This document shows positions 24,001 to 30,000 of a DNA stretch of 64,000 nt, in pieces. The stretch's first letter is position 1. Each line of letters begins with the position of its first letter. The DNA comes from Escherichia coli (lineage in GTDB: Bacteria; Pseudomonadota; Gammaproteobacteria; Enterobacterales; Enterobacteriaceae), in the NCBI RefSeq assembly GCF_048403405.1, contig NZ_CP183129.1; one strand, written 5' to 3'. A program made the position numbers.

Positions 24001-27000
24001 AGCACAGCTACAGATGTCCGGATGGGCGAGCGCTTTGACTTCAAATGATTACAGTATTAGTGGCGATGCCACCAGCGCACAAATTGTCGCGATGCAAGTG
24101 ACAACGAGTAACCCGGATGTGCTGGCGAATGGCAGCGATCGACATATGGTGAATGTCCGGGTGGAAGATCAGTTTGGCAATGTGCTGCCGGAGCAGACCG
24201 TCACCTTTACGGTGACGAAAGGGGCGGCTGTATTTGCCAATGCAGGGCAGAGCGCAGATATCAGGACGGATGCGCATGGCATGGCAGAGGTTGATCTGAG
24301 CAGTACCGTAGCGGATGCCAGCACTGTTGAGGCTAAGATCAATCAAAGCAGCGATAGTAAAACGGTGAACTTTGTTGCTGATGTTAGCACGGCGCAGGTC
24401 GCTGAGCTGGTGGTCATTAAGGATGGTTCAGAGGCGGACGGTTCGACGGCGAACACGCTGCGGGTGAAGGTCACCGATGCGTTCGGGAATGCACTTGCCG
24501 GGCAGACGGTCAGCGTGTTGGCAGGCAACGGTGCAACTGTCGCTCCGACGGTGATTACAGAGCCGGACGGCACGGTGGAGATCAGTGTCACCAGCCAGAC
24601 CGCCGGAACCAGTGTGGTCACCGCCAGCGTCAACAACAGCAGCCAGAGCCAGAACGTGACATTTATTGCGGATATCAGGACGGCGCAGATCGCGGATCTG
24701 GTGGTCACCCGGGATAACTCGGTGGCTGACGGTTCGACGGCGAATACGCTGCAGGTGAGGGTGACCGATGCGTTCGGGAATGCGCTGAATGGGCAGACGG
24801 TCAGCGTGTTGGCGGATAACGGTGCAACGGTCACTCCGACGGTCACTACAGAGCCGGACGGCACGGTGGAGATCAGTATCACCAGCCAGACGGCGGGAGT
24901 CAGTGCAGTCACTGCAACCATCAACAGCAGTACTCAGAGTCAGAACGTGACATTTATCGCCGATGTCAGGACGGCGAAGATCGCGGATCTGATGGTCATT
25001 AAGGACGACTCAGTGGCAGACGGTGCAATGGCGAACACGCTGCGGGCGAGGGTGACCGATGCATTCGGTAATACGTTGGGCGGGCAGACGGTCAGCGTGT
25101 TGGCGGATAACGGCGCAACGGTTGCCCCGACAGTCACTACGCAGCCGGACGGCACGGTGGAAATCAGTGTCACCAGTCAGACCGCCGGAACCAGTACAGT
25201 CACTGCCAGCATCAACAACAGCAGCCTGAGCCAGAACGTGACGTTTGTTGCCGATGTCAGGACGGCGAAGATCGCGAGTCTGGAGGTTACCCGGGATAAC
25301 TCAGTGGCTGACGGCGCAATGGCGAACACGCTGCGGGTGAAGGTCACCGATGCGTTCGGGAATGCGCTGAATGGACAGACGGTCAGCGTGATGGCGGACA
25401 ACGGCGCAACGGTTGCCCCGACGGTGATCACCGAGCCGGACGGCACGGTGGAAATCAGTGTCACCAGCCAGACGGCGGGAGTCAGTGCAGTCACTGCAAC
25501 CATCAACAGCAGTAGTCAGAGTCAGAACGTGACATTTATCGCCGATGTCAGCACGGCGAAGATCGCTGATCTGGTGGTCATTAAGGATGGTTCAGAGGCG
25601 GACGGTTCGACGGCGAACACGCTGCGGGCGAGGGTGACCGATGCATTCGGTAATACGTTGGGCGGGCAGACGGTCAGCGTGTTGGCGGATAACGGCGCAA
25701 CGGTTGCCCCGACAGTCACTACGCAGCCGGACGGCACGGTGGAAATCAGTGTCACCAGTCAGACCGCCGGAACCTGTACAGTCACTGCCAGCATCAACAA
25801 CAGCAGCCTGAGCCAGAACGTGACGTTTGTCGCCGATGTCAGCACGGCGAAGATCGCTGATCTGGTGGTCATTAAGGATGGTTCAGAGGCAGACGGTTCG
25901 ACGGCGAACACGCTGCAGGTGAAGGTGACCGATGCGTTCGGGAATGCACTTGCCGGACAGACGGTCAGCGTGATGGCAGGCAACGGCGCAACGGTTGCCC
26001 CGACGGTGATTACAGAGCCGGACGGCACGGTGGAGATCTCTGTCACCAGCCAGACGGCGGGTACCAGTACAGTCACTGCCAGCATTAACAGCAGCAGCCA
26101 GAGCCGGAACGTGACGTTTATCGCCGATGTCAGCACGGCGCAGATCGCGAGTCTGGAGGTGACGCAGGATAACGCCGTGGCAGACGGTGCGACGGCGAAT
26201 ACGTTGCGGGTGAGGGTCACCGATGCGTTCGGTAATGCGCTTGCCGGGCAGACGGTCAGCGTGTTGGCAGGCAACGGTGCCACGACTGCTCCGACGGTCA
26301 CCACGCAGCCGGACGGCACGGTGGAGATCTCAGTCACCAGCCAGACCGCCGGAATCAGTGCGGTCACCGCCAGCATTAACAACAGCAGCCAGAGCCGGAA
26401 CGTGACATTTATCGCCGATGTCAGGACGGCGAAGATCGCTGATCTGGTAGTCACCCGGGATAACTCAGTGGCAGACGGTGCAATGGCGAACACGCTGCGG
26501 GTGAGGGTCACCGATGCATTCGGGAATACGCTTGCCGGGCAGACGGTCAGCGTGATGGCAGACAACAGCGCAACGGTGTCTCTGACGGTCACTACAGAGC
26601 CGGACGGCACGGTGGAGATCTCTGTCACCAGTCAGACGGCGGGAGTCAGTGCGGTCACCGCCAGCATCAACAACAGCAGCCTGAGCCAGAGCGTGAAGTT
26701 TATTGCCGATGTCAGGACGGCGCAGATCGCTGATCTGGTGGTCATTAAGGATGGTTCAGAGGCGGACGGTTCGACGGCGAACACGCTGCAGGTGAGGGTC
26801 ACCGATGCATTCGGTAATGCGCTTGCCGGGCAGACGGTCAGCGTGACGGCAGACAACAGTGCAATGGTCGCTTCGACTGTCATCACAGGGCCGGACGGCA
26901 CGGTGGAAATCAGTGTCTCCAGCCAGACCGCCGGAATCAGTGCGGTCACTGCAACCATCAACAACAGCACCGCGAGCCAGAACGTGATGTTTATCGCCGA

Positions 27001-30000
27001 TGTCAGGACGGCGAAGATCGCTGATCTGGTGGTCACCCGGGATAACTCAGTGGCTGACGGCGCAATGGCGAACACGCTGCAAGTGAAGGTTACCGATGCT
27101 AACGGTAATACGCTTGCCGGGCAGACGGTCAGCGTGTTGGCGGACAACGGCGCAACGACTGCCCCGACGGTCATCACAGAGCCGGACGGGACGGCGGAAA
27201 TCAGTGTCACCAGCCAGACGGCGGGAGTCAGTGCAGTCACTGCAACCATCAACAGCAGTAGTCAGAGTCAGAACGTGACATTTATCGCCGATGCCAGCAC
27301 GGCGAAGATCGCTGATCTGGTGGTTATTAAGGATGGTTCAGAGGCGGACGGTTCGACGGCGAACACGCTGCGGGTGAGGGTGACCGATGCGTTCGGGAAC
27401 ACGCTAGCCGGGCAGACGGTCAGCGTGTTGGCGGACAACGGCGCAACGACTGCCCCGACGGTCATCACAGAGCCGGACGGTACGGTGGAGATCTCAGTCA
27501 CCAGCCAGACGGCGGGAGTCAGTGCAGTCACTGCCAGCATCAACAGCAGCAGCCAGAGCCGGAACGTGACGTTTGTCGCCGATGTCAGGACGGCGCAGAT
27601 CGCGGATCTGGTGGTTATTAAGGACGGTTCAGAGGCGGACGGTGCGACGGCGAACACGCTGCGGGCGAGGGTGACCGATGCATTCGGTAATGCGCTTGCC
27701 GGGCAGACGGTCAGCGTGTTGGCGGACAACGGCGCAACGGTCGCCCCGACGGTCACCACGCAGCCGGACGGTACGGTGGAGATCTCTGTTACCAGCCAGA
27801 CGGCGGGGATCAGTGCGGTCACAGCCAGCATCAACAACAGCAGTCTGAGCCGGAACGTGACATTTATCGCCGATGTCAGCACGGCGAAGATCGCTGATCT
27901 GGTGGTCATTAAGGATGGTTCAGAGGCAGACGGTTCGACGGCGAATACGCTGCAGGTGAAGGTCACCGATGCTAACGGTAATACGCTTGCCGGACAGACG
28001 GTCAGCGTGTTGGCAGGCAACAGCGCAACGGTCACTCCGACGGTGACCACCAAGCCGGACGGCACGGTGGAGATATCTGTAACCAGCCAGACGGCGGGAA
28101 TCAGTGCAGTCACTGCCAGCATCAACAGCAGCAGTCAGAGCCGGAACGTGACGTTTATCGCCGATGTCAGGACAGCGAAGATCGCGGACCTGGTGGTCAT
28201 TAAGGACGACTCAGTGGCAGACGGTGCAATGGCGAATATGCTGCGGGCGAGAGTCACCGATGCGTTCGGTAATGCGCTTGCCGGGCAGACGGTCAGCGTG
28301 TTGGCGGGCAACAGCGCAACGGTTGCTCCGACGATGACCACAAAGCCGGATGGCACGGTGGAGATCAGTGTCACCAGCCAGACGGCGGGCACCAGTACAG
28401 TCACCGCCAGCATCAACAACAGCAGCCAGAGCCAGAACGTCACCTTTGTACCTGGTGATGCATCGCAACTCACTTCAATCGTTGAAACAAATAAGTCGAA
28501 CTATACGGTTGGAGAGACAATCACCATCACGGTAACGCTCCGGGATGCGTTCGATAATCTGGTAACCGGTGCAGCTTCACAGTTAGCCGCTGATGGTGTG
28601 CTGACGGTGGCTGGCACTGACCCGTCAGAAATGGGAAGCTGGGTTGAATCAGGTGGCGTGTATACCACAACCCGAATGGCGACGATTGCCAGTACCAATC
28701 AGCACGCCAACCTGCAATTGCAGACGTGGAGTGATGGCGTAACGTCAGATCGCTATGACATCCAGTCCGGTTCTCCGGCGCAAGCCACATCAACTATCGC
28801 TACGGATAAAAACGCCTACACCGCTGGCGACACTATAACCGTCGCCGTGACGCTGAAAGACGCGCACGGTAACCTGGTTGAAGGGGGCGAGTCCTTACTG
28901 TCTGGTGATAACGTAATAGTGGAAGGAGCCGTACGTTCAGGAGGATGGTCTGAAAACGCCGGTGTTTATACTGCTACATGGTCGGCGCAAATGGCGGGAG
29001 ACTCTCACCACGCGACGCTGAAGTTGTCTGAATGGGGCAGCAGTAAACAATCAGAGAGTTATTCCATCCACAGCGGTGCTCCGGTGCAGGCAAATTCTGC
29101 TATCAGGACAGATAAATCGGCATATATCGCCGGGGAGCCATTAACCGTCACAATAACGTTGCGGGATGAGTTTGGTAACCCTGCTTTAGGGCTGACATCA
29201 GAAGTCATCGAGTCTTATATTGATAGTTTCGCGGTAGGCGGCGCAACTCCCGATTCTATGCGGTGGGTCGAGCAGAATAATGGTGAATATACCATTGTCT
29301 GGACAGCATGGGTTGCCGACGAAAATCTGGTTGCCAGTCTGAAATTAAAAACATGGGCAACGGAGATTAAGTCCTCGCTATACGGGATACAACCAGGTGC
29401 AGCGGCAAAAACTCAATCAACGATTGTCGCGGACAAAACGATATATATCGCTGGGGATAGCATAACGGTGACCGTTGTTCTTAAAGATGCCCAGGGTAAC
29501 TTTATTACTGATGGTGTTGTTCAGCTTAATGAGGAAAACGTACAAGTCAGGAATGCGGATCCTATCCAGGGCAATAATTGGGTTTACAACGGCAATGGGC
29601 AATATCAAAGACAGTATATGGCGCATTTTGCGGAAGCGAATTTGAATGCGCAACTGAAGATGGCTGGTTGGAGCGATGCCAATTATTCAAACAATTACAC
29701 TATTAAACCAGGTGAAGTGAGTCCGCTTGGTTCACAGCTTCGTATACGAGAAGTTTTAGTAGTGGAAGGGGCGGATTTACCTGTCAGTGCTTTATTAGTT
29801 GATGATTTTGGAAATCCGGTGGATAACGGTCTGGATTTGCTGGATGATGCAGTGTACTTACAAAATGTAGAAAAAAAAGAAGGGGAAAAATGGAGATATG
29901 TGGGTGATGGAATATATGAACGTACATATATGGCCTACCAAGAAGGAGAAAATTTAACTTCATTTATGGAGATTAAAGGTTGGCGTATATACGGACAACC

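Follow-up and report, generated by a model that had tools for sequence, protein, structure and literature searches.

How does one surface protein come to carry fourteen consecutive copies of the same domain, and do the bacteria that carry it keep to that number? The question is raised by a stretch of 64,000 nucleotides (nt) of Escherichia coli DNA (RefSeq assembly GCF_048403405.1, contig NZ_CP183129.1), the whole of which is called ‘the window’ below. It contains iatC, known also as air and eaeX, a gene for an inverse autotransporter (type Ve) adhesin, and within that gene is a tandem array of 14 units of 291 base pairs (bp), each encoding one immunoglobulin (Ig)-like domain. The array very probably supplies the mid-stalk Ig domains of IatC, with in-register exchange between units altering its length and short-tract exchange making the units mosaics, and it is this joint reading that is argued for here. 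The gene and its repeat-number variation are known; what is new is a census of that variation, the junctions at which whole units differ between close relatives, the mosaicism of the units, and a rise in GC content at third codon positions (GC3) that is confined to the array.

Fourteen units in one reading frame

Tandem Repeats Finder (TRF) returns a single array, 24380-28447, with a period of 291, 14.0 copies, 85% matches, 0% indels and a score of 5311. The 14 units, of 97 codons each, start at 24380 + 291i, are in frame within one open reading frame (ORF), and each is one Pfam Big_1 domain (E 1e-18 to 1e-21). This is what an earlier note on this DNA had proposed when it described fourteen in-frame Ig-like modules of 291 bp, or 97 codons; the span it gave, 24365-28438, is likewise exactly 14 × 291 bp and in frame, beginning 15 nt upstream of the span used here (24380-28453) and representing an equally valid phase. 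Self-identity of the DNA at a lag of 291 bp is 0.81-0.91 in the array versus 0.23-0.33 in the rest of the gene, a contrast that excludes chance as the source of the array.

In calling the modules near-identical, however, the earlier note overstated the case. DNA identity between pairs of units ranges from 80.8% to a maximum of 95.5% (mean 85.2%), protein identity from 75 to 93% (mean 82%), and 120 of the 291 columns of the unit alignment are variable. What the units do share comes in stretches: in-register identical runs of at least 25 bp are present at every lag in the array, the longest being 163 bp. At the protein level 40 of the 97 positions are near-invariant, including PDGTVEISVTSQTAG and VTDAFGN, and another 29 are highly polymorphic, mainly with two conservative alternatives; these polymorphic residues alternate with conserved ones in a beta-strand-like pattern.

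Other features noted within the array are four antisense ORFs of 193-289 amino acids (aa) on the minus strand (24343-28125), unannotated by RefSeq in strain 4621, which we take to be by-products of GC-rich periodic sequence. Fragments of the array have also attracted names: one source calls one of them ‘acylphosphatase’ (protein hit P0119), and there are weak matches to unrelated NCBIfam models (radical-SAM-associated lipoprotein, post-PEP-CTERM). Both look like annotation artefacts caused by the repeats.

From two units to twenty-nine

For the census a single unit (25835-26125) served as blastn query against 5,426 complete E. coli genomes, the number of places matched per record being the copy number. 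It replaced the spans of whole-gene megablast alignments, which gave a copy number for end-to-end aligned alleles only. The census counts equal direct counts at 12 of 14 comparable loci, and at the other two, both of them disrupted genes, they deviate by one unit. The array is present in 751 of the genomes (14%) and has from 2 to 29 units with a median of 17; a spread sample of 60 genomes includes 17 different copy numbers.

Direct counts were made on 16 fetched alleles which together with the window give 17 alleles and 232 units. There are 25 units in CB6837 and VTB96933v, 20 in 042, 19 in MRSN346647 and 405, 17 in CFSAN061771, 16 in 550, 14 in the window and TUM10828, 13 in 21AH006, 12 in TUM14771, 11 in SMS-3-5, 10 in LR-58-2, 8 in BroCaecum-55, 5 in 23S01245-7, and 2 in both F2_81 (with an extra 42 bp between its units) and EC571. 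Among the fetched genes the protein extends from ~2070 aa with 2 units to ~4290 aa with 25. In the 14 intact canonical genes, among them the window's, the first unit begins at gene offset 3453 and the spacing is exactly 291 bp. Two of the others are broken. In 21AH006 (L012, 6802-15554) a deletion of 2377 bp, running from unit 14 into the 3′ part, splits the gene, and it is because the deletion is out of register that the gene is lost; the EC571 allele (L010, 5027-11442) is annotated as frameshifted.

That Big-repeat number varies in eaeX has been published (Fox 2020, PMC7058095). Goh 2019 (PMC6714894) saw no evidence for a variable tandem-repeat number in IatC; the census, with its 2-29 units, contradicts that statement, which should be corrected.

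Does the number matter to the cell at all? Mutationally unstable repeats might simply drift, with length immaterial over a wide range, and frames that are intact at both ends of the 2-29 range, the occurrence of disrupted alleles (21AH006, EC571) and a gene found in only 14% of complete genomes would all sit well with that. Nearly all arrays are nonetheless in frame, the flanking parts of the gene are 98-99% conserved, and the median of 17, with no complete genome below 2 units, hints (indecisively) at selection against very short stalks. We treat the neutral account as possible, but lean against it.

One plasmid record in the genome collection has 6-7 places matching the array unit; either a plasmid has acquired part of iatC or the contig may have been misassigned.

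Where whole units differ

Single events can be isolated in five pairs of alleles, each pair being identical or one base apart in everything else. The window and TUM14771 differ by two units, with a 55-bp stretch at the junction shared by units 3 and 5; 550 and TUM10828 differ by two (32-bp shared stretch), 550 and LR-58-2 by six (39 bp), CFSAN061771 and BroCaecum-55 by nine (11 bp), and the 042 and 550 blocks also by nine (89 bp). All five indels are exact multiples of 291 bp, and the junction units are clean chimeras of two parents, otherwise unchanged. In the first case, the third unit of TUM14771 is the window's unit 3 up to position 231 and then has unit 5's base at 287; exchange within the shared unit positions 232-286 accounts for the 582-bp difference between the two alleles.

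The flanks of these alleles are almost the same. TUM14771, with 12 units, has 4 mismatches to the window, with 14, in ~19.6 kb of flanks, and 550, TUM10828 and LR-58-2, with 16, 14 and 10 units, have none in 11.6-19.5 kb. With 0-4 mismatches over some 12-20 kb the copy-number changes arose within clones. The length variation foreseen in the earlier note is thus found at both scales, across the 751 complete genomes and even inside clones.

By what process? Exact multiples of 291 bp and junctions within shared stretches of 11-89 bp point to in-register recombination or slippage. The earlier note had spoken of slipped-strand or recombinational change: the in-register indels of whole units are there to be observed, and the molecular process behind them, be it homologous (RecA-type) recombination or slipped-strand mispairing between units, is what we infer from the junctions. 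Because no array holds duplicate units the recent events would seem to be mostly losses, with deletions presumably predominating. There is also a trace of expansion: units 8-9 of strain 042 are 98.6% and 97.3% identical to its units 11-12, the record of an older three-unit duplication.

Mosaics drawn from a common pool

The units are fine-scale mosaics. Among 64 informative two-state sites all four gametes are present in 66% of pairs, with 36% for pairs within 10 bp and ~70% beyond 60 bp; the squared correlation (r2) among sites drops from 0.29 to ~0.08, linkage decaying within ~30 bp; the Hudson-Kaplan minimum number of recombination events (Rm) is at least 32 across units; and none of 2000 permutations of site order reached the clustering observed. 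The 232 units comprise 143 distinct DNA sequences, and no two identical units occur within any allele examined. At 98.8% of the bases in other alleles' units the state is one that is present in the same column of some window unit, so that the variants form a common pool. Other alleles' units are often only 85-93% identical to the best window unit, with flanks at 98-99%. The window allele is itself a recombinant, having a CB6837-like 5′ set of units (units 1-5 are each at most one base from CB6837 units 1-5) and an MRSN346647-like 3′ end (units 11-14 are 0-1 base from the last four units of that allele, and the 3′ flank is 99.95% identical).

How old, then, are the units? High identity had been taken in the earlier note to imply recent amplification or concerted evolution, by which the units would be young or else kept alike by homogenizing gene conversion. 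Exchange between units does occur, one window pair reaches 95.5%, and the two-unit block in strain 042 is 97-99% identical at a lag of three units. But divergence between the window's units is ~15%, with a mean synonymous divergence (dS) of 0.38; none of the alleles has identical units; and identity is flat at about 0.85 over all lags in the eight alleles profiled. Apart from one three-unit trace, seen in CB6837 as well as in 042, the arrays show no higher-order periodicity, and units farther apart are no less alike. Every allele has a mean of 0.85, a constancy more like that of an old equilibrium than of a young burst. That the array was amplified recently and then kept uniform by concerted evolution therefore seems to us very improbable: the units are neither young nor homogenized, and exchange shuffles variants instead of homogenizing them.

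It is natural for a surface protein to ask whether the shuffling is maintained by the immune system of the host, through positive selection for new surface epitopes. The 29 highly polymorphic residues, the 139 distinct unit proteins encoded by the 143 distinct unit DNAs, and an identity to the best-matching unit of another allele that often falls far short of that of the flanks are all in the spirit of such antigenic diversification. Against it, the ratio of nonsynonymous to synonymous divergence between units (dN/dS, pairwise Nei-Gojobori) is 0.28, with a range of 0.13-0.62, which means that amino-acid changes are not in excess overall, and most replacements are conservative (V/I, K/R, S/T, A/S). 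We consider it unlikely and, with dN/dS at that level, have not adopted it.

A step in GC3 at the array borders

Eleven 97-codon blocks before the array have a GC3 of 0.48-0.59, all 14 units have 0.70-0.79, the block directly after the array has 0.53, and at the 3′ end of the gene the value is 0.29-0.33. The change coincides exactly with the borders of the array (24380-28453 versus 21179-24379 and 28454-30601), and the first and second codon positions keep a GC content of ~0.5 throughout the gene. The excess lies mainly in codons that end in G or C (ACG, GCG and GTC are examples), which are not known to be the ones favoured in highly expressed E. coli genes. At 33 third positions with two states, one weak (A or T) and one strong (G or C), the G/C state is the majority at 24 and the minority at 7. 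Expression level and regional mutation bias are controlled for here by the neighbouring non-repeated Ig domains of the same gene.

Two explanations are left for the step: GC-biased gene conversion accompanying the exchange between units, and an origin of the array apart from the rest of the gene. A tentative proposal, to which we give appreciably less than even weight, is that the array joins two linked processes, frequent short-tract gene conversion and GC-biased repair of heteroduplexes. Short-tract conversion would combine some 30 mostly two-state residues per domain into many domain variants, and would account for the 143 distinct sequences among the 232 units of the 17 alleles; GC-biased repair of the heteroduplexes would lift synonymous GC exactly within the array borders. 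If this is so, biased gene conversion in bacteria could be tested at this locus with paralogues as the control.

A separate observation is that the last ~1.3 kb of iatC (29327-30601), encoding the D4-D5-like tip, has a GC3 of 0.29-0.42, like the adjoining low-GC eip island. With a tip of low GC3 and an array of high GC3 the gene is compositionally tripartite.

Is the copy number real?

Might the 14 copies, or the differences between strains, be nothing but errors of repeat assembly? Non-complete assemblies certainly fail at this locus. In a protein-database search with the N-terminal 1151 aa none of the 120 matches listed exceeded 2011 aa and the query protein was itself absent, so full-length alleles are not countable in that way. 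‘Partial’ clusters end inside the array (P0059, 1710 aa, 1,955 members; P0070, 1520 aa, 349 members), and dozens of complete-looking proteins of 1959-1964 aa among the matches listed contain exactly one unit. In four of these the one unit is the first unit fused to the last of alleles that have 14, 17 or 25 units in complete genomes; two one-unit proteins with the same flanks differ in their junction; and the one traced to its source comes from a multi-contig NCBI assembly. In none of the 751 complete genomes was the one-unit junction query covered to at least 80%. Being absent from those genomes, and having junctions that vary in the same background, the one-unit proteins are probably collapsed assemblies. 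The junction of P0001 speaks against collapse: in comparison with the reference allele of 17 units it has only ~8 bp of identity, an unusual length if k-mers had caused the collapse.

The earlier note's warning of trouble with short reads was therefore well founded, but its doubt over the true copy number here was not. The same 14-copy gene (9675 bp) is present, with equal bit score, in four other complete genomes (4621, MS 69-1, TUM1226 and OX030728). The copy of strain 4621, the one compared base by base, has a single mismatch to the window, at 27294 in codon 2 of unit 11 (V to A, giving ‘DASTAK’); the base there is private to the window strain, TUM14771 and MRSN346647 having the other. A divergence of 15% between units lets long, even Sanger, reads place them; the old finished genomes of 042 and SMS-3-5 have 20 and 11 units; many independent complete genomes agree on 16, 17, 19 or 20; and the units at the junctions are clean two-parent chimeras. 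That assembly error made the array or its variation is scarcely credible.

The gene, its protein and its surroundings

The gene is iatC/air/eaeX, located between nepI and eilA (Table 1). The NCBIfam equivalog model for the IatC N-terminus, NF040978, scores 3031.3 bits over aa 1-1065 against a cutoff of 2400. Identities as intimin, SinH, YrIlm and Ilp were tried and set aside, every NCBIfam model for them scoring below its own cutoff. RefSeq names the gene iatC in strain 4621, whose copy differs by one base; 5.3 kb around the gene start are 100% identical in several complete genomes annotated with nepI and then ‘inverse autotransporter adhesin IatC’; and the homologue of strain 042 is annotated ‘air: EaeX/Air’. 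The neighbours nepI, iatC and eilA (the selC-B, eip region) are conserved in 17 genomes by RefSeq annotation.

By our own count there are about 25 Ig-like domains in the whole protein, 14 of them from the array; the last before the array, aa 1056-1150, is a single Big_1 in Pfam. Two array units align with domains D1-D2 of the invasin rod (1CWV; E 1.6e-16), and 30008-30562 of the window aligns with residues 297-479 of the same structure (E 2.8e-18). Taken with the Pfam hits, these alignments settle what the fold is. On every feature tested, that is barrel, Big_1 passenger, tip, locus and equivalog, the protein belongs to the IatC/Air/EaeX family.

Table 1. Positions of iatC, its parts and the adjoining regulator gene in the window
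Feature	Coordinates	Strand	Basis or remark
iatC / air / eaeX coding sequence, 3224 aa	20927..30601	+	Single ORF; NCBIfam NF040978; RefSeq annotation
IAT_beta outer-membrane beta-barrel, aa 149-423	21371..22195	+	Pfam PF11924, E 2.6e-108
Six non-repeated Ig-like domains, aa 537-1151	22535..24379	+	Pfam Invasin_D3 and Big_1
Tandem array, 14 units of 291 bp, aa 1152-2509	24380..28453	+	TRF, Pfam Big_1, identity matrix, GC3
Unit 3	24962..25252	+	95.5% identity with unit 5; no two units of the array are closer
Unit 5	25544..25834	+	Partner of unit 3
Distal non-repeated part, with more Ig-like domains and an invasin D4-D5-like end (C-type-lectin-like tip)	28454..30601	+	Pfam Invasin_D3, Invasin_D4
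eilA, HilA-family regulator	30653..32350	-	RefSeq annotation; context, outside the repeat

Downstream of iatC a low-GC (36-40%) cluster on the minus strand (30653-37615) contains eilA and genes for a SipD/IpaD-like tip protein, a 376-aa hypothetical protein, a SipB/YopB-like translocon subunit, a 60-aa ORF and a SycD/LcrH-type chaperone. This is the selC-B locus, which has been described by Sheikh 2006, as cited in PMC7058095, and by Fox 2020 (PMC7058095), and the literature links selC-B/eip with the ETT2 (E. coli type III secretion system 2) secretion system (PMC7058095). According to the former, again as cited there, the eilA product controls genes of the selC locus. The gene for tRNA-SeC (selC) is at 42098-42192 on the minus strand; up to 42121 the window hardly differs from strain 4621, and from 42122 onward the two are unrelated, a break that marks different island cargo at the selC integration site. 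Just upstream of nepI is a RelE/ParE-family toxin with a helix-turn-helix (HTH) antitoxin (18647-19307, minus strand), found beside the iatC locus in every fetched genome. Further away, a low-GC (37-41%) insert between ilvN and uhpA holds two hypothetical ORFs (7274-7756 and 8035-9474) that are also in 042 and 4621.

What the array would do

Our view of the whole is as follows. The beta-barrel would anchor IatC in the outer membrane and the chain of Ig domains would hold the D4-D5-like tip off the cell, with the 14 Big_1 domains forming the middle of the stalk. In-register stretches of 25-160 bp shared between units would allow recombination or slippage to delete or add whole units, every whole-unit product staying in frame, and stalk length would in consequence be a fast-changing character, with 2-29 units across the species and changes also inside clones. 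Meanwhile short-tract exchange, both between units and between the alleles of different strains, would shuffle a limited set of mostly two-state variants, leaving each unit a mosaic and the units ~85% alike.

Several points weigh against this view or curb it. The 11-bp junction is short for RecA-dependent exchange and fits slippage better. Each indel is readable as loss or as gain, the comparisons themselves giving no direction. Most lineage groups share one number (there are runs of nine genomes with 19 units, seven with 20 and five with 17), and Big-repeat number is conserved within sequence type 69 (ST69; Fox 2020, PMC7058095); with counts shared in this way within lineages, the array is unstable on an evolutionary scale and is no high-frequency switch. 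An N-terminal LysM module has been reported for the protein via InterPro/ScanProsite (PMC6714894, PMC7058095), and our Pfam scan of aa 1-1151 found no LysM; the type Ve family is not defined by this module. Finally, that stalk length affects adhesion or biofilm is something that we infer.

What has been established about function comes from two alleles. IatC of strain SMS-3-5 is surface-exposed and promotes biofilm (Goh 2019, PMC6714894), and eaeX and eilA mutants of strain 042 show weaker adhesion and less biofilm (Sheikh 2006, as cited in PMC7058095). A protein-length range of more than 2-fold could alter the reach of the tip beyond O-antigen or capsule, and with such a range what was found for the alleles of 042 or SMS-3-5 may not hold for other alleles. 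There is a practical side too. The gene air/eaeX is routinely scored as an E. coli virulence gene; presence/absence and ‘partial’ calls from short reads are unreliable at this locus, and database entries with a single unit are probably artefacts. To evolutionary biologists the array provides clean cases of in-register indels, fine mosaicism and a GC3 rise limited to a repeat.

Comparison with known systems

Repeats that are in frame and the size of a domain, and whose number is changed by recombination with an effect on protein length, are familiar from the alpha C/Rib family of group B streptococci and from the Bap family. Those proteins are, however, unrelated to IatC and use other secretion routes, and their repeats are usually near-identical.

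Closer in build are invasin of Yersinia pseudotuberculosis (1CWV) and intimin, which share with the window protein a barrel, an Ig rod and a lectin-like tip. Invasin, unlike the window array, has four Ig-like domains, constant in number and without tandem DNA repeats, and the NCBIfam intimin model gives the window protein 380 bits against a cutoff of 1400. Another inverse autotransporter, YrIlm of Yersinia ruckeri (PMC10174560; Wrobel 2018/2020), also has a long Big array and a lectin-like tip. Its repeat number also varies among alleles and is not resolved by short reads (PMC10174560). The YrIlm repeats, of which there are up to 22, are described as nearly identical (PMC10174560), whereas the window units are ~85% identical and finely mosaic; by the NCBIfam YrIlm model the window protein is a non-member (413 bits, cutoff 750).

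The true counterpart is IatC/Air/EaeX itself, in the literature on which we have found no description of the junctions, of the GC3 step or of the units as mosaics. Gene and locus (nepI, iatC, eilA and the eip genes) are the same, and the flanks are 98.5-99.1% identical to those of 042 and SMS-3-5; the window allele differs from these published alleles in its array, which has 14 units in place of 20 and 11.

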